From a virus (lineage: Duplodnaviria; Heunggongvirae; Uroviricota; Caudoviricetes): 36,526 bases of DNA. Within the stretch, counting starts at the first letter, position 1. Every line of letters begins with the position of its first letter. The translations under genes were made by a program, and so were the position numbers. The stretch lies in IMG/VR virus record IMGVR_UViG_2531839145_000010. The stretch is one strand, 5' to 3'. The notes beneath the pieces were generated by a model. That model ran no database searches, was not told the DNA's origin, and saw only the letters and a list, made by a program, of their open reading frames with translations. Positions 2,949 through 11,227 of the stretch are shown one piece after another.

Positions 2949-3245
2949 ATGCTGACGAAAGAACCATCATTTGCATCGCTGCTGGTAAAACAAAGCCCGG
3001 CAATGCACTACGGTCACGGCTGGATCATGGGTGAGGATGGTAAACGCTGGCATCCGTGCCGTTCACAAGATGAATTGCTGTCTGAATTGACCACGGGGAA
3101 ACGGAGAAAGTCAAAATGTATGCAGCGGAAAGTGAAGTGGTTTATCAGTTTCGTTACAGAGGGGAGAGTTATTCAGTACCTGAAGATGATTTGCTCTGTT
3201 GTTATCCGTCGTTGTCGGGCGATGGCATTTACTTTTTCACGCTAA
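2949..3245 (+). CDS. Hypothetical early protein; 3' extent doubtful
   Basis: ATG 2949 follows a gaggtg RBS; first ~60 codons look protein-like, remainder overlaps the next ORF in another frame. Confidence 0.3.
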   Translation: MLTKEPSFASLLVKQSPAMHYGHGWIMGEDGKRWHPCRSQDELLSELTTGKRRKSKCMQRKVKWFISFVTEGRVIQYLKMICSVVIRRCRAMAFTFSR

Positions 3246-3340
3246 AGGATGGGACGTTTTTACGGGGAGAGCAGGTTAAAGAGACGATACGAAAAAATGT
3301 ATCTCCTCTTGAACGTTACCGTAAGAACAAAGAACGATAG
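3116..3340 (+). CDS. Hypothetical early protein (74 aa)
   Basis: ATG 3116 preceded by ggagaaag RBS; hydrophilic, protein-like composition. Confidence 0.45.
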   Translation: MYAAESEVVYQFRYRGESYSVPEDDLLCCYPSLSGDGIYFFTLKDGTFLRGEQVKETIRKNVSPLERYRKNKER

Positions 3341-3362
3341 TTGCGTTTTGGGGATATGAATT

Positions 3363-3704
3363 ATGGCAATTAATGGCGCTGCGGCGACTGTTCCATTAAG
3401 CCCCGGTGAACGCCTGAATGGACTTAATCACATAGCGGAATTAAGGGCGAAAGTTTTTGGCCTGAATATTGAGTCAGAGCTTGAGCGGTTTATTAAAGAT
3501 ATGCGTGATCCACGGGATATCAATAATGAACAAAATAAACGGGCACTGGCTGCCATATTCTTTATGGCAAAAATTCCAGCTGAACGTCATAGCATCAGCA
3601 TTAATGAGCTGACCACTGACGAAAAGCGGGAGTTGATTAAAGCAATGAATCATTTTCGTGCAGTGGTGAGCTTATTTCCCAGACGGCTAACCATGCCGAA
3701 TTAA
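3363..3704 (+). CDS. Hypothetical early protein (113 aa)
   Basis: Complete ORF in the early operon between cII and the replication gene. Confidence 0.55.
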   Translation: MAINGAAATVPLSPGERLNGLNHIAELRAKVFGLNIESELERFIKDMRDPRDINNEQNKRALAAIFFMAKIPAERHSISINELTTDEKRELIKAMNHFRAVVSLFPRRLTMPN

Positions 3705-3771
3705 CCAACTAATGAAATTAATGGCGTAAACCCGCCGGGTATCCCTTTATCTAAATTCAGGAGAATTGATT

Positions 3772-4232: not shown

Positions 4233-4531
4233 CAGGGGCTGTGCGTATCCATCAATTAAAAATTGCACCTAAGTATTTCAATGCTGTGGTTGCAGGTCAA
4301 AAGACGGCTGAACTTCGTAAAGACGATCGTGGCTATAAAGTTGGTGATGTTCTTTCTCTTTGCGAATGGAAGCATGGCGTATTTACGGGTAGGGAATGGG
4401 CCGCGGTTATCTCTCATGTGCTTCCGGTTAATGACGTCATGGCAGTTTCAGAACAATGGGTGATGCTATCAATTCGCTCATTAACCCCATTAGAAGCTTT
4501 AGGATATGTTATTGCAGGAGGTGCTGTATGA
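4229..4531 (+). CDS. ASCH/DUF3850-like small protein
   Basis: 100-aa ORF; start overlaps upstream stop (ATGA); call rests on recalled family resemblance. Confidence 0.5.
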
Positions 4532-5385
4532 GCACCATCCTGAAATGGGCGGGAAATAAAACCGCAATTATGTCCGAACTGAAAAAACACCTTCCTGCTG
4601 GCCCGCGACTGGTTGAACCTTTCGCGGGTTCCTGTGCTGTGATGATGGAGACGGATTATCCAGGCTATCTGGTTGCGGATATTAATCCTGATTTAATCAA
4701 CCTCTATAAAAAGGTTGCCGCTGATTGTGAATCGTTTATATCTCGCGCCAGAGTTTTATTTAAGGAAGCAAACAGGGAGGTGGCTTATTACAACATAAGG
4801 CAGGAGTTTAATTACTCAAATGAAATTACTGATTTCATGAAAGCGGTATATTTCCTGTATCTCAATCGTCACGGTTACCGTGGTTTATGTCGCTATAACA
4901 AGAGCGGGCATTTCAACATTCCCTACGGTAATTATAAAAATCCGTATTTCCCAGAAAAAGAAATTCGCGCATTTGCAGAAAAAGCCCAGCGGGCAACGTT
5001 TATCTGCGCCAGCTTTGATGAAACGCTGGCGATGTTGAAGGCGGGGGATGTGGTGTATTGCGATCCGCCGTATGACGGCACGTTTTCCGGTTATCACACT
5101 GACGGCTTCACTGAAGATGACCAGTATCACCTGGCATCCGTTCTTGAACATCGGTCATCAGAAGGACATCCGGTCATTGTTTCTAACAGTGACACATCCC
5201 TGATCCGTTCGCTGTATCGCAATTTTACTCACCACTACATCAAGGCAAAACGCAGCATCGGCGTAGCAGCTGGTGAGAGTAAATCTGCAACAGAAATCAT
5301 CGCTGTTTCTGGGGCGCGCTGCTGGGTGGGATTTGATCCTTCGCGTGGCGTGGATAGTTCTGCCGTGTACGGAGTGCGTGCATGA
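4528..5385 (+). CDS. DNA adenine methyltransferase (Dam-like)
   Basis: N-terminal KWAGNK...EPFAGS and catalytic DPPY motifs. Confidence 0.85.
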
Positions 5386-7796
5386 GCCATGCTGATATGA
5401 ACAACTGCAGCGGCTTTAACGAGGCCGCCGCAGCATTCTCATGGAACAGCCCGAAAAAGGCTATTAACCCTTATCTGGACCCGGCGGAAGTTGCGCCGGT
5501 TTCTGCGCTTTCAAACCTGATCACTCTGTACGCTGCCGATAACGAGCAGGAACAACTGCGCCGCGAGGCACTGAGTGATCAGGTCTGGGAGCGTTATTTC
5601 TTTAATGAATCCCGTGATCCTGTCCAACGCGAAATGGAGCAGGATAAGCTCATTAGCCGGGCAAAGCTGGCGCATGAGCAGCAGCGTTTTAACCCGGACA
5701 TGGTCATTCTGGCAGACGTCAGCGCCCAGCCCTCCCATATCAGCAAGCCGCTGATGCAACGTATTGAATACTTCAGCAGCCTGGGCAGGCCAAAGGCTTA
5801 TTCCCGCTATTTGCGTGAGACGATTAAGCCATGTCTGGAACGACTGGAGCATGTACGCGACAGTCAGCTATCCACTTCTTTTCGCTTTATGGCAAGCCAT
5901 GAAGGGCTGGACGGCCTGCTGATCCTGCCTGAAATGAGTCAGGATCAGGTGAAACGCTTGTCTACCCTTGTCGCTGCGCATATGAGCATGTGCCTTGATG
6001 CAGCTTGTGGCGATTTGTATGTCACCGATGACGTTAAGCCAGAAGAAATCCGCAAGACATGGGAAAAGGTGGCAGCGGAAACCCTGCGTCTGGATGTCAT
6101 CCCGCCTGCGTTTGATCAACTCCGCCGGAAAAGAAACCGCCGTAAACCCGTGCCCTATGAACTCATTCCGGGTTCGCTGGCGCGTATGTTGTGCGCCGAC
6201 TGGTGGTACCGGAAATTATGGAAGATGCGTTGCGAATGGCGGGAAGAGCAGTTGCGTGCTGTTTGCCTGGTCAGCAAAAAAGCATCTCCCTATGTCAGCT
6301 ATGAAGCCGTGATGCATAAACGTGAGCAGCGCCGTAAGTCGCTGGAGTTTTTTCGTTCTCATGAACTGGTGAACGAAGACGGCGACACGCTGGACATGGA
6401 GGATGTGGTAAACGCCAGCAGCAGCAACCCTGCGCATCGCCGCAATGAGATGATGGCCTGTGTTAAAGGCCTGGAGCTTATCGCGGAAATGCGCGGTGAC
6501 TGCGCCGTTTTCTACACCATCACCTGTCCGTCACGTTTCCATTCCACGCTAAATAACGGCAGGCCCAACCCAACCTGGACAAATGCGACGGTAAGACAAA
6601 GTAGTGATTATCTGGTCGGCATGTTTGCTGCATTTCGTAAGGCGATGCACAAAGCCGGATTGCGCTGGTATGGCGTGCGGGTGGCTGAGCCGCATCATGA
6701 CGGTACAGTTCACTGGCACCTGTTGTGTTTTATGCGCAAAAAAGACCGCCGCGCCATCACTGCATTACTGCGTAAGTTTGCCATCCGTGAAGACCGCGAG
6801 GAGCTGGGCAATAACACTGGGCCGCGCTTTAAGTCTGAGTTGATTAACCCGCGCAAAGGTACGCCAACAAGCTACATCGCGAAATACATCAGTAAGAACA
6901 TTGACGGGCGTGGTCTGGCTGGCGAGATCAGCAAGGAAACGGGGAAATCCCTGCGTGATAATGCTGAATACGTTAATGCCTGGGCGTCTCTGCATCGTGT
7001 TCAGCAATTCCGCTTCTTTGGCATTCCGGGGCGTCAGGCTTACCGTGAACTGCGATTGCTGGCTGGTCAGGCGGCAAGGCAACAGGGGGACAAAAAAGCA
7101 GGTGCGCCGGTACTGGATAACCCGCGCCTTGATGCAATCCTGGCTGCTGCTGATGCTGGTTGTTTTGCCACCTACATTATGAAGCAGGGCGGCGTACTGG
7201 TTCCCCGCAAATATCACCTTATCAGAACAGCTTATGAAATTAACGAAGAGCCGACCGCCTATGGCGATCACGGTATTCGTATTTATGGCATCTGGTCACC
7301 CATTGCAGAGGGCAAGATTTGTACTCATGCAGTGAAGTGGAAAATGGTTCGTAAGGCCGTTGACGTTCAGGAGGCGGCAGCCGACCAGGGCGCTTGCGCC
7401 CCTTGGACTCGTGGCAATAACTGTCCCCTTGCTGAAAATTTGAACCAACAGGAGAAAGATAAATCAGCTGATGGGGACACCAGAACGGATATTACCCGCA
7501 TGGATGACAAGGAGTTGCACGATTTTCTGCACAGTATGAACAAAAAAGAGCGCCGGGAACTGGCTGCAAGGTTACGCCTGGTGAAACCGAAACGGCGTAG
7601 AGACTACAAACAGCGAATTACAGACCATCAACGACAGCAGCTCGTCTATGAACTGAAGTCCAGAGGATTTGATGGCAGCGAGAAAGAGGTAGATTTACTC
7701 TTTCGCGGTGGCAGTATTCCGTCAGGAGCAGGCCTGCGTATCTTCTATCGGAACCAGCGTTTGCAGGAAGATGATAAGTGGCGGAACCTGTATTAA
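5382..7796 (+). CDS. A: Replication initiation endonuclease (P2 gpA-like HUH rolling-circle initiator)
   Basis: 804 aa; HUH motif VHWHLLCF and catalytic-Tyr motif YIAKYISK; position downstream of the early operon. Confidence 0.9.
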
Positions 7797-7889
7797 TTAC
7801 GCTGGTTAACAATTCATGCTCTTAATAATACCAGGCATATCAGGCTGATAAGCGTAAAAAAAACGTTTTACATCAGTAAGATTATTATA

Positions 7890-7909
7890 TACTGTAAATA
7901 TAAACAGTG
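7890..7909. promoter_or_regulatory. LexA (SOS) box within the promoter region upstream of ORF62/DinI-like genes
   Basis: TACTGTAAATATAAACAGTG, a CTGT-N8-ACAG palindrome close to the LexA consensus; a TATACT -10-like hexamer overlaps it. Confidence 0.65.
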
Positions 7910-7949
7910 GTTATGTGTACAGTATTGCTTTGGTGTCATAGGAGGAAAG

Positions 7950-8138
7950 ATGCAGGACTATTTTTTGGAGTCTTTGAAGCTCCAGCGCATTGATTTTTTT
8001 CTTAAGCTTGTAGCGGCTAGTGAGTGTAGTGATGAAGAGAAGGGGCTGGCTTTGCAGTGGGTTTCTGAATTGACTGATGAACTCATGGCAAAAATCAGAA
8101 GCCACGAATACAACCGCTCAATGGATGTCATCAGCTGA
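7950..8138 (+). CDS. Hypothetical SOS-regulated protein (62 aa)
   Basis: First ORF downstream of the LexA box, ggagg RBS; Tum-like antirepressor role suggested only by position. Confidence 0.45.
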   Translation: MQDYFLESLKLQRIDFFLKLVAASECSDEEKGLALQWVSELTDELMAKIRSHEYNRSMDVIS

Positions 8139-8148
8139 GGTGACTTTT

Positions 8149-8382
8149 ATGCGCATTGAAATAATGATCGATAAAGAGCAGAAGATTAGCCAGTCTACCC
8201 TGGACGCCCTTGAATCCGAGCTTTACCGCAATCTGCGCCCCCTGTATCCCAAAACGGTAATCCGTATCCGTAAAGGTAGCTCTAACGGTGTGGAACTGAC
8301 CGGACTGCAACTGGACGAAGAAAGAAAACAAGTGATGAAAATTATGCAGAAGGTGTGGGAAGACGACAGCTGGCTGCATTAA
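8149..8382 (+). CDS. DinI-family protein
   Basis: MRIEIMIDKEQ...WEDDSWLH resembles recalled E. coli DinI (MRIEVTIAKT...WESADDWF); ATG 8149 preceded by gaggtg. Confidence 0.75.
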   Translation: MRIEIMIDKEQKISQSTLDALESELYRNLRPLYPKTVIRIRKGSSNGVELTGLQLDEERKQVMKIMQKVWEDDSWLH

Positions 8383-8389
8383 GAAATGT

Positions 8390-8422
8390 TGCTGGCGTCA
8401 GTAATTAATTCTGACGCCAGCA
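8390..8422. terminator. Hairpin between convergent DinI-like gene and cargo operon
   Basis: Perfect 12-bp inverted repeat tgctggcgtcag / ctgacgccagca around a 9-nt loop; no clear T-tract. Confidence 0.45.
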
Positions 8423-8476
8423 CGTTGAACAGCAAGTAAGTCAAGGTGTTAGTTAAAAAAACACCTTATAAGCCAT

Positions 8477-9160
8477 CTATGATTGAAGAGCAATCTTTCT
8501 CAACGTATCAAATACAATTTTTGTAAAATTATTTTCATTTTTAACGTCAATGTAAGCAAGAGCGTTATTAGTAATTTTAAGTTTACCAGAATACTCTAAT
8601 GAATTAACGGAGCAAACAAGTTTGTCAATTCTTATTTTCTTCCCCTCTAATTCTTCTTTATAATATTTTCTAAGGTCACTGCTGCCAATTATTTGCATTT
8701 TAGCTGTAGCGTAATCAGCGACTCTAACTCTAGAAATATCCAGTTGTGTTAGATTTATATTCACATTTGAAGATATTTCGTTGAGCCAGTCCATCGGATT
8801 TATATCAATCTCTTCTAGGCTAACGCCTAAGCCAAGATTTCTGACTAAGGCCTGTGAAAACGGTTTTAAAGTTCGCGGAGGGTTAGTAAGTTGCATTATA
8901 GGAAGAGTATCTAAAGATACACTGAAATTAGTAGTGCGGTATTCGACTCTTTCTACGATAGTTTCGCTTCCGTCAAAATTAGAAACTTGATCGTGATAAA
9001 TAATACGCTCAACAAAGCGTCCATGTGCAGAATCATGACGTATTTTATCAAAAATAAACCCTTTCCCCTTATCCTCGGTAAAAGAATCAAGAGAAAGACG
9101 TTTAACAGCTTTTTCAAATTCAAGCCGTATGTTTAATTTGAGCCACTTAACCTTCTTCAT
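8477..9160 (-). CDS. Cargo operon gene 3: hypothetical protein (227 aa), no recognised domain
   Basis: Start overlaps upstream gene by 14 nt; AT-rich; no motifs recognised by eye. Confidence 0.7.
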   Translation of the reverse strand: MKKVKWLKLNIRLEFEKAVKRLSLDSFTEDKGKGFIFDKIRHDSAHGRFVERIIYHDQVSNFDGSETIVERVEYRTTNFSVSLDTLPIMQLTNPPRTLKPFSQALVRNLGLGVSLEEIDINPMDWLNEISSNVNINLTQLDISRVRVADYATAKMQIIGSSDLRKYYKEELEGKKIRIDKLVCSVNSLEYSGKLKITNNALAYIDVKNENNFTKIVFDTLRKIALQS

Positions 9161-10226
9161 GTTCGTTTACCTCTGGTCCTATTATTATATTATAGGCATT
9201 TTCAGCGGCTGACTCAATTAATTCACTAATATGTCTTTTCTCTTGTGCCGTTGCCGCACGAATTGTCACATTGAATCCGTCTTCTTTTTGATTATTTATC
9301 CCTTTAATTTGATAGGCAAAGTCACAGCAATTTTCAGAGTCTTTGAAAAATGCTTCAACGTTAATTCTGTCACCAACTCCACTTGTCGGTTTTGAAGACC
9401 ATGCGATACGGCCTATATAATAACCTTTCTCGTGTAGTTGAGAAAATATAGGCGAACTATTAACACCTTCACCATTCAAAACAGCTTTCTTGACGAATCC
9501 GGTATCGATTGTTTCTTCTTTGTCTTCATCTTCACTTGCGTCAATACTGCGATTTAATTCTACTTTCGTTACATCATCAGTCTCATAACCATGTAGTCCA
9601 TTCATTAACTCTTGAAAGAACTGGCTTCGCAATGTAGGGTCAGTGATTGCCATTAAAGAAATTTCAAAACGTTCAATAGGCTCAGATTTGATTTTAGACA
9701 GCTCGTTTTGCAGACCCTCAATAACTTTTTTTGCCTCAGGATTCTGTGGCATACGTACTTCAACCTTGTCAACACCAGGGCGAAGTTCTATTATGACATT
9801 CCGTTTATCTATTTGACGCAGAGCGGTTTTAGATAAGTCTATTTCTTCATAGTTATATTCTACTGTCAGAGAACCATCTTTTTTCGCTACGATATTCAAG
9901 CTTTGCCCTTTACTGGGTGAACATGTTTTTTTCAATGCTTCAGCTGCGCTCTTTAATTCGGCCTGATTTGTTGTGGTCTGAAAACTCACACTGGTAATGC
10001 TTTCTCTTGGATCATATGTTTTGACCATCTTTTTTATATGCTCTAATTCATTAAAGCCATGGGGGAGTTTTGATATTTCCTCGATAAGTATTTCCTTGTC
10101 GAGTTCTGGTGATAAAAAAACACCTCTATTTAGCAATAATTCATGTAATTTTGCAGGGGTTATTCTTTTATGATGCAAAGCATCATAAATATTCTTGTCA
10201 GTCGCAAAGTATAATTTTTTAGCCAT
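9147..10226 (-). CDS. Cargo operon gene 2: hypothetical protein (359 aa), highly charged
   Basis: ATG overlaps upstream stop by 1 nt (TAATG); acidic stretch DASEDEDKEETID; no catalytic motif recognised. Confidence 0.7.
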   Translation of the reverse strand: MAKKLYFATDKNIYDALHHKRITPAKLHELLLNRGVFLSPELDKEILIEEISKLPHGFNELEHIKKMVKTYDPRESITSVSFQTTTNQAELKSAAEALKKTCSPSKGQSLNIVAKKDGSLTVEYNYEEIDLSKTALRQIDKRNVIIELRPGVDKVEVRMPQNPEAKKVIEGLQNELSKIKSEPIERFEISLMAITDPTLRSQFFQELMNGLHGYETDDVTKVELNRSIDASEDEDKEETIDTGFVKKAVLNGEGVNSSPIFSQLHEKGYYIGRIAWSSKPTSGVGDRINVEAFFKDSENCCDFAYQIKGINNQKEDGFNVTIRAATAQEKRHISELIESAAENAYNIIIGPEVNEHEEG

Positions 10227-11227
10227 TATCGTTGCTCCATCCCAATTTTTTCAAGATTATATTCAACTACAACTTTGTCTGTCTTTTCGAAGTCAAATTT
10301 AAGAAAAAGTCTTTCATCCTCACCTAACAGCCAGTCTGTACTGTATTTCTTTTTAGCTTTTTCAAAATGATGAATAGCATTTTCATTTGGATGGATATGA
10401 CAATGACGTAATAAAATTGGTTTGCCTTCAGTGAGTATCTGATAAGTTGATAGCATGTCAAAAAAGTACACAAATTCATCTAATGAATCACCGGGTTGAT
10501 TGTAATAAACAACATACCCTTCTGGGATATCTTTTTTAAGCCAGCTAAAAGCCTCATGTTTAATTATGATGTATGGCGATGTTAATAATTCAATTGTCGC
10601 AGGTGTTGTTTGGTTGATGGGGTGTTTTATTCTTGTTAAAGAAAGATCTGGGTAATAGTAAGTAAACTTATCAGGCTGTGGAAGTTTTCCAGAGCCTATT
10701 AATTTGGTTATGTCAGAGGATATATTTATTAAATCAGATATTTTATAGGGGTCAAGTAAGTGTAGTTTTATGTTTGGAGGACAATTTATAACGGAATGAT
10801 CTAATTTTTTTGTAATATTTTCATAGAAATCTTTATCATATAGATTATCATGATTATACAAAAATAACAAACCTCTTACATTATAACCTAAAGAATCATC
10901 ATGAACGTATTTCAATCGCCACTCTTCACTTACATTCGCACACTCGGTAGCTAAAGCAAGTGAGGTTAAGGCACCTTCGACCATTTTTTTACCAATAGAT
11001 CCCACCGCATAGCTCTTTAGATCTGTATTGAGATAGACCATTTCCTCTTCATAAGGGTCTGTGTAGAAAAATACAACATCACTTGGATGGGTTTTCTTGG
11101 AATGTACCTCTTGGCAACATTCCCAATTCATGTCCGCTCTAGCGGCGCGATCCCATTTGAATACAGAGAAAATATCATCAGAAATTTTACCTGCGACTCG
11201 TTGTATAGCCGAAGTTTCTCCACCCAT
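10226..11227 (-). CDS. Cargo operon gene 1: hypothetical protein (333 aa), His-rich C-terminal motif
   Basis: GGAG RBS about 10 nt upstream of ATG 11225-11227; His cluster HCHIHPNENAIHH; AT-rich; occupies the P2 old/tin position. Confidence 0.7.
   Translation of the reverse strand: MGGETSAIQRVAGKISDDIFSVFKWDRAARADMNWECCQEVHSKKTHPSDVVFFYTDPYEEEMVYLNTDLKSYAVGSIGKKMVEGALTSLALATECANVSEEWRLKYVHDDSLGYNVRGLLFLYNHDNLYDKDFYENITKKLDHSVINCPPNIKLHLLDPYKISDLINISSDITKLIGSGKLPQPDKFTYYYPDLSLTRIKHPINQTTPATIELLTSPYIIIKHEAFSWLKKDIPEGYVVYYNQPGDSLDEFVYFFDMLSTYQILTEGKPILLRHCHIHPNENAIHHFEKAKKKYSTDWLLGEDERLFLKFDFEKTDKVVVEYNLEKIGMEQR

Follow-up and report, generated by a model that had tools for sequence, protein, structure and literature searches.

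A predicted split tumA–tumB SOS operon with a putative second LexA box in a P2-like prophage of the 186/Fels-2 type

Introduction

In phage 186, Tum is a LexA-controlled anti-CI factor expressed from the promoter p95 (PMC7708051). Tum binds CI reversibly, blocks operator binding, and is needed for UV/SOS induction (PMC7708051; PMC3121763). The p95–tum operon lies after gene A, and orf97 is the next gene in it. The promoter is annotated as TTCACA-18-TACTGT, the –10 hexamer being the left half of the one LexA box of this operon. Tum (146 aa) combines its N-terminal and DinI-like parts in a single polypeptide. Internal starts also give DinI-only forms, which are annotated in the 186 record as merely modulating the induction.

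According to Lemire 2011, which cites Bunny 2002, a stop codon divides tum in Fels-2 and PSP3, and the antirepressor activity belongs to the upstream gene (PMC3121763). The assignment for PSP3 is given there as a personal communication and is known second-hand (PMC3121763). In GenBank, the tumA gene of PSP3 carries the description "similar to 5' end 186 tum; UV induction of prophage", and its tumB gene is described as "similar to dinI and 3' end of 186 tum". As summarised in PMC12626290, the lexA-null survivors of Salmonella LT2 in Bunny 2002 had lost Fels-2 in every case, and this is genetic evidence for LexA holding the prophage quiescent.

The Salmonella prophages Gifsy-1, -2, and -3 likewise have a LexA-repressed operon (dinI–gfoA/gftA), encoding a small antirepressor and a DinI homologue, together with an uncleaved repressor. 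These operons differ from the split tum in that dinI comes first and the repressors belong to another family. The antirepressors of Gifsy prophages are also able to affect other prophages in trans, and deletions of dinI in Gifsy prophages left the induction unaffected (PMC3121763). In colicin promoters, two overlapping SOS boxes are bound by two LexA dimers, which prevents lethal expression at the wrong time (PMC2994835).

The window analysed here is a stretch of 36,526 nucleotides (IMG/VR record IMGVR_UViG_2531839145_000010), which is a P2-like prophage of the 186/Fels-2 type. A sequence-only reading had proposed that a 62-aa ORF (ORF62) and/or a DinI-like gene, following the replication gene and a LexA box, form an SOS-inducible antirepressor, possibly as a two-protein arrangement. 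We report on the sequence elements, homologies, conservation, and purifying selection of this locus. The module turned out to be a known and ordinary one, namely the split tum SOS operon of the Fels-2/PSP3-type phages. With high confidence, we regard it as a split tumA–tumB operon in which LexA would keep the promoter shut, TumA would be the antirepressor of CI, and TumB would be an accessory protein. To the known description, we add a second LexA-like box, the apparent dispensability of tumB, and the purifying selection on TumA, which is found without covariation with CI.

Results

The prophage and the genes around the operon

The features of the locus are collected in Table 1. As had been read from the sequence, ORF62 and the DinI-like gene stand 3' of the LexA box, which lies inside the 153-bp gap between gene A and ORF62. 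ORF62 is thus the gene directly 3' of gene A and is transcribed rightward, as are its counterparts in 186, PSP3, Fels-2, and the genome loci. The gene order in PSP3 and Fels-2 is the same as here, i.e., gene A, LexA box, small upstream gene, and DinI gene. The parallel with 186 also held, since its tum occupies the same place after gene A with the same LexA box/–10 layout, and its target belongs to the same 186-type CI family. Among 5426 complete genomes of E. coli, 1125 contain the module, and its genes there are annotated "DinI-like family protein" and "hypothetical protein". On the upstream side, ORF 4456–5385(+) overlaps the start of gene A. Its translation contains a DPPY motif and by eye resembles a Dam-type adenine methyltransferase; it shows 68–74% identity in some relatives.

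Table 1. Features of the tum-type operon and its surroundings in the window.
Feature	Position	Strand	Basis or remark
Integrase	1–1209	–	window
CI immunity repressor, 186-type	1449–2105	–	Pfam Phage_CI_repr (3.3e-31) and Phage_CI_C (4.7e-29)
Replication gene A	5382–7796	+	Phage_GPA match, 1.3e-127
Putative –35 hexamer TTTACA, p95-type promoter	7867–7872	+	17 nt 5' of TACTGT
Putative –10 hexamer TACTGT, left half of LexA box 1	7890–7895	+	likeness to 186 p95; invariant among aligned relatives
LexA (SOS) box 1, TACTGTAAATATAAACAGTG	7890–7909		17/20 vs. 20-bp consensus
LexA-like box 2, GTGGTTATGTGTACAG	7907–7922		11/16 vs. CTGTATATATATACAG in the window
Shine–Dalgarno AGGAGG, tumA	7940–7945	+	4 nt 5' of ATG 7950; (A)GGAG kept in relatives
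tumA-type gene (ORF62), 62 aa, putative CI antirepressor	7950–8138	+	profile match to the N-terminal part of 186 Tum
Shine–Dalgarno GAGGTG, tumB	8137–8142	+	overlaps the tumA stop; 6 nt 5' of ATG 8149
tumB, DinI-family gene, 77 aa	8149–8382	+	Pfam DinI, E 6.6e-23
Hairpin 3' of the operon	8385–8426		dG –25.5 kcal/mol, z –5.9 vs. shuffles
Three low-GC ORFs (227, 359, and 333 aa)	8477–11227	–	full-length PADLOC matches to Hp3, Hp2, and Hp1 (E 5e-144, 1.5e-245, and 2.6e-233)

The prophage carries the 186-type CI that had been claimed for it, with both Pfam CI domains. Its match to Peptidase_S24 was below the Pfam cut-off, and it belongs with the non-cleavable repressors. Homologues align only from about residue 30 of the ORF; the true start of CI therefore probably lies downstream of the GTG at 2105. 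Among 50,697 phage records, the best match of the window CI was that of vB_EcoM-813R9 (57%). The identity to the CI of 186 is 33%, and to that of RE2010, a different immunity type, it is 43.5%. The TumA and TumB of RE2010 are 96.8% and 100% identical to those of the window, as are those of Fels-2. Among the loci examined, an identical CI occurred only in Escherichia sp. MOD1-EC7003. The window CI is therefore a rare immunity type.

Downstream of the operon, other phages remain similar to the window only as far as 8380 or ~8431; therefore, the tum operon is one border of a variable hotspot. The hairpin at this border has no T-run on the + strand, and it may serve as a bidirectional terminator. 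Directly past it, three ORFs run convergently to the tum operon; they are of 'unknown function' in PHROGs. These Hp3/Hp2/Hp1 genes are probably the "3HP" anti-phage system of P2-like phage hotspots, which DefenseFinder lists as Rst_3HP. The system name Rst_3HP occurs in the literature. In the window, this convergent three-gene defence cargo stands in place of a + strand gene, which is orf97 after tum in 186 and STM2726, of the same length as orf97, after tumB in Fels-2. In the Klebsiella phage ST437-OXA245phi4.1, the first two of the three ORFs (684 and 1080 nt, same strand) come after tumB.

The promoter and the LexA boxes

The near-consensus LexA box that had been noticed over a promoter-like region is well founded. 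TACTGTAAATATAAACAGTG is the sole CTGT-N8-ACAG in the window. This loose pattern alone is not significant, since 0.45 occurrences are expected in the window and at least one was obtained in 38 of 100 shuffles. With the full consensus TACTGTATATATATACAGTA and up to three mismatches, box 1 was again the sole match in the window, and none of the 100 shuffles contained one. At the same position 5' of the tumA-like genes, the box was found in 31 of 33 genome loci; one of the other two is short of upstream sequence, and the box of the other is degenerate. It is also found at this place in Fels-2, PSP3, 186, ESSI-2, ESSI2_ev015, and ST437-OXA245phi4.1. In an alignment of the sequences upstream of the gene in 24 relatives, which come from different genera of Enterobacterales, the –35 hexamer (TTTACA/TTCACA), the LexA box, and the ribosome-binding site proved to be fixed, while the spacer and the flanks drifted. 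Box 1 is far from a chance occurrence, because it persists in the 31 loci and the six phages while its spacer and flanks diverge. Box and –35 together form a phylogenetic footprint.

A generic sigma-70 scan called no promoter at the start of the operon. The arrangement TTTACA-17-TACTGT mirrors that of 186 p95, in which the –10 hexamer also forms the left half of the box. Since the box covers the putative –10 element, the region has the layout of a LexA-repressed promoter, as expected at the sequence level for the Tum/TumA class.

A LexA-like box 2 shares exactly one base pair with box 1. It is weak in the window; 16-mers with no more than five mismatches to CTGTATATATATACAG make up just 2.7e-4 of those in the window. 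The same register is strong in relatives; 20 of 32 have at most three mismatches (13–15/16), e.g., GTGTATATATATACAG in one of them (L008). The 186, PSP3, and ESSI-2 types have a single LexA box and a short leader, and in PSP3 this box lies 20 nt from the start codon. As in colicin promoters, two LexA-box-like 16-mers share one base pair, the second opening with GTG, not CTG. Unlike there, other genes are controlled, and box 2 is degenerate here (11/16) and putative. As a candidate element, the second overlapping box is an addition to the known description of the split tum.

The tumA-type gene

The alignment to 186 Tum that the sequence-only reading had suggested placed the two proteins on different parts of Tum. 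A profile of the ORF62 family, built from 24 representatives, matched residues 5–44 of 186 Tum in hhalign (probability 95.6%, E 1.3e-8), and the DinI-like protein matched residues 71–145. ORF62 matches the N-terminal part and the DinI-like protein the C-terminal part; therefore, the two genes together are a split tum. Pairwise BLASTP gave no alignment of ORF62 with 186 Tum, nor of PSP3 TumA with 186 Tum, and the relationship of ORF62 to Tum (~20% identity in the N-terminal part) was detectable by the family profile alone. PSP3 TumA is a different, barely alignable sequence type, to which the ORF62 profile gave a weak match (E 0.0033, probability 9.8%). ORF62, 186 Tum, and PSP3 TumA all have a Cys residue in the turn between the helices, which stands in register with Tum. 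The conserved positions of the ORF62 family include E7, R13, C26, and W37.

A phmmer search of 1.8 billion representative sequences yielded a family of 55–72 residues, with 67 representatives after clustering at 50%. These 67 matches are small proteins, and a TumA–DinI fusion was absent among them. In a tblastn search of phages, ORF62 retrieved only Fels-2-type and ESSI-2-type genes, and neither 186 nor PSP3. ORF62 is 96.8% identical to Fels-2 STM2728. In the Cronobacter phage ESSI-2 (L004:1501–1680) and in ESSI2_ev015 (L005:1501–1713), the TumA-like gene is 41–49% identical to ORF62. The genes next to it are on the opposite strand, leading to the portal gene, and the ORF in ESSI-2 is without annotation.

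ORF62 had no match in Pfam, and in PHROGs it belongs to PHROG 698 ('unknown function'). In RefSeq E. coli it is labelled 'hypothetical protein', and occasionally 'levan regulatory (domain) protein' is seen among its public labels. Database entries often carry spurious N-terminal extensions (84–106 aa); in the window, there is no ATG, GTG, or TTG 5' of 7950 in the frame of ORF62. The AlphaFold2 model is a two-helix hairpin with a pLDDT of 90, and Foldseek against the PDB returned generic helical hairpins alone, none of them at E ≤ 0.001. The TumA proteins are under strong purifying selection, with a median dN/dS of 0.07 at a dS of 0.95 (236 pairs).

The DinI-family gene

The DinI-like protein matched PF06183 over the complete profile (positions 1–63 of 63) with 81.3 bits, the cut-off being 24.2, and it matched the structure of E. 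coli DinI (1GHH) over residues 1–75 (E 2.7e-6). It is 41% identical to residues 71–145 of 186 Tum (3e-24), 100% identical to Fels-2 STM2726.1, and 78% identical to PSP3 TumB. From its family membership, TumB would be expected to bind RecA filaments and to modulate the co-protease activity.

The tumA–tumB pair is kept in 21 of 34 loci, and in the other 13 tumB is missing while the LexA box and tumA are retained. ESSI-2 and ESSI2_ev015 likewise have the LexA box and the tumA-like gene with no DinI gene. Because of the 13 loci, tumB appears to be dispensable.

These counts bear on the question of which protein acts on CI. The proposal of ORF62 and/or the DinI-like protein as the antirepressor, in a two-protein form, is supported by the split-Tum homology, by PSP3 tumA/tumB, and by the statement of Lemire 2011 cited above (PMC3121763). 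It is possible in principle that TumA and TumB form a heterodimer that reconstitutes Tum, and that only this complex, or TumB itself, inactivates CI. Such an arrangement would suit the single polypeptide of 186, the retention of the pair in 21 loci, and the short distance between the genes, since tumB starts 10 nt past the tumA stop and has its Shine–Dalgarno sequence over this stop, which fits a coupled, equimolar synthesis. However, it is difficult to reconcile with the 13 loci and the two ESSI-2-type phages that have the box and tumA without a DinI gene. The PSP3 activity is assigned to the upstream gene in Lemire 2011 (PMC3121763), the DinI-only forms of 186 are annotated as modulators, and the Gifsy dinI deletions were without effect (PMC3121763). 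We consider the heterodimer unlikely. The proposal can thus be refined: ORF62 most likely acts as the antirepressor by itself, since many relatives lack tumB, the DinI-only forms of 186 are annotated as modulators, and the loss of dinI in Gifsy prophages had no consequence for induction.

TumA and the CI repressor

The 186-type CI (1449–2105, –), the presumed target of TumA, has counterparts in each of the 27 loci whose early region is intact. We compared the pairwise identities of TumA with those of CI and of the neighbouring gpA. For TumA and CI, the Spearman coefficient was 0.016 over 253 locus pairs, vs. 0.65 for TumA and gpA over the same set; the locus pairs are not phylogenetically independent, and both values are descriptive and not tests. 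The covariation that one would expect, which is an expectation and not a formal condition for the class, was therefore absent, and this is unexpected for a repressor-specific binder. Individual pairs gave the same picture. L011 and L012, as well as L012 and L015, have identical TumA proteins despite 19–21 synonymous differences (dS 0.72–0.96), whereas the CIs of these pairs share only 45% and 41% identity, respectively. Overall, identical TumA proteins accompany CIs that are 36–51% identical, and the phages with a TumA 97–98% identical to that of the window have CIs that are 38–57% identical to the window CI. The mosaic prophage L028 (chromosome of Pantoea stewartii ATCC 8199) combines a CI (3204–3725) that is 64% identical to the 186 CI with an antirepressor gene (10001–10186) of the Fels-2/ORF62 type, 84% identical to that of the window, and not of the fused 186 type.

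Our literature search found no paper naming the CI domain that is bound by Tum. Within the CI family, the N-terminal HTH domain has a mean pairwise identity of 64%, as compared with 24% for the linker and the first half of the C-terminal domain. A conserved N-terminal domain offers a target common to many repressors, which explains the missing covariation. The simplest reading is that TumA would recognise a conserved surface of CI, probably on this domain, and may serve many immunity types. The pattern suggests that TumA is a generalist antirepressor.

The same observations could be read differently, with ORF62 being SOS-induced and acting on a conserved target other than CI (such as a factor of the host or a further protein of the phage) or having an unrelated function. 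The near-zero correlation with CI, the tracking of gpA, the identical TumA proteins beside CIs of 41–45% identity, and the 186-like CI of L028 paired with a Fels-2-type TumA are all compatible with this, as is the generic helical hairpin, which has no informative structural neighbour. Nevertheless, ORF62 shares homology with the N-terminal part of Tum, whose anti-CI action has been shown biochemically (PMC7708051), and all intact prophages examined have a 186-type CI along with it, while a shared target on the conserved N-terminal domain could account for the absent covariation. On the strength of the Tum homology and the strict co-occurrence, an action of TumA that is not directly on CI is less likely than recognition of a conserved surface, and we judge a non-CI target very unlikely. 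We therefore retain CI as the presumed target of TumA.

A further observation concerns five loci (L010, L020, L034, L037, and L038; match at ~10001–10186), in which tumA stands beside a truncated or frameshifted gene A. The LexA box is present 5' of tumA in four of them and was not detected in L037. The 10 kb upstream contain neither an integrase nor CI or cII, and these loci look like prophage remnants in which tumA is still under SOS control.

The tumA–tumB junction

Among the relatives, the gap between tumA and tumB is 8, 9, 10, 11, or 12 nt, so that the frame relation varies; the G-rich Shine–Dalgarno sequence is kept. The tumA stop codon is TGA, TAA, or TAG. In the window, the frame of tumB stays open as far upstream as 8077, which makes it overlap with the last part of ORF62, and a +1 shift would give a product of ~140 aa, about the size of Tum; a fused Tum-like protein made by programmed frameshifting or stop-codon read-through is nevertheless excluded in practice, since neither the frame relation nor the stop codon is constant among relatives, each tumB has its own Shine–Dalgarno sequence and ATG, and no conserved slippery motif is present.

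The terminator scan flagged a stem-loop at 8127–8144(+), GTCATC/GGTGAC, which spans the tumA stop and the tumB Shine–Dalgarno sequence and is followed by TTTTAT. It was rejected as a terminator or other feature because it is absent as a conserved element in 15 relatives, and it is probably incidental.

Discussion

The operon is best understood as the split tumA–tumB form of the 186 system. By analogy with 186, PSP3, and Fels-2, the host LexA protein would bind the box over the –10 hexamer in the undamaged cell and keep the promoter shut. LexA may also occupy the second, overlapping, and weaker box. DNA damage would activate RecA, which would lead to the self-cleavage of LexA and to the firing of the promoter. 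TumA, a predicted helical hairpin of 62 aa, would then bind the 186-type CI reversibly and keep it from binding its operators, and with CI blocked, the lytic promoter would be derepressed and the prophage induced. TumB, a DinI homologue with its own ribosome-binding site, would be an accessory protein, which probably modulates the RecA filaments and the SOS signal and would not itself be an antirepressor.

Several findings count against this account. BLASTP did not align ORF62 with 186 Tum, the family profile matched PSP3 TumA only weakly, and the covariation between TumA and CI is absent. Moreover, the promoter scan was negative, and box 2 of the window agrees with the consensus at no more than 11 of 16 positions.

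The missing covariation also allows a wider conjecture, which we put forward as a tentative and rather doubtful one. A Fels-2-type TumA might inactivate 186-type CIs of many immunity types (36–57% identical) through a conserved surface, most likely the N-terminal HTH domain, and the SOS induction of one prophage might thereby trigger the induction of heteroimmune P2-like relatives that share its cell. The double LexA box might, in addition, make the firing late and all-or-none.

The homology to the N-terminal part of Tum and the annotation of PSP3 tumA would justify naming ORF62 a TumA-like antirepressor, where more than 1000 complete E. coli genomes say "hypothetical protein". The module predicts that DNA-damaging antibiotics would mobilise the prophage together with the adjoining 3HP defence cargo. 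If TumA is a generalist, the prophage remnants that keep tumA could still influence resident P2-like prophages. If one antirepressor serves many immunity types, cross-induction among P2-like prophages may be possible, as for the Gifsy prophages (PMC3121763).
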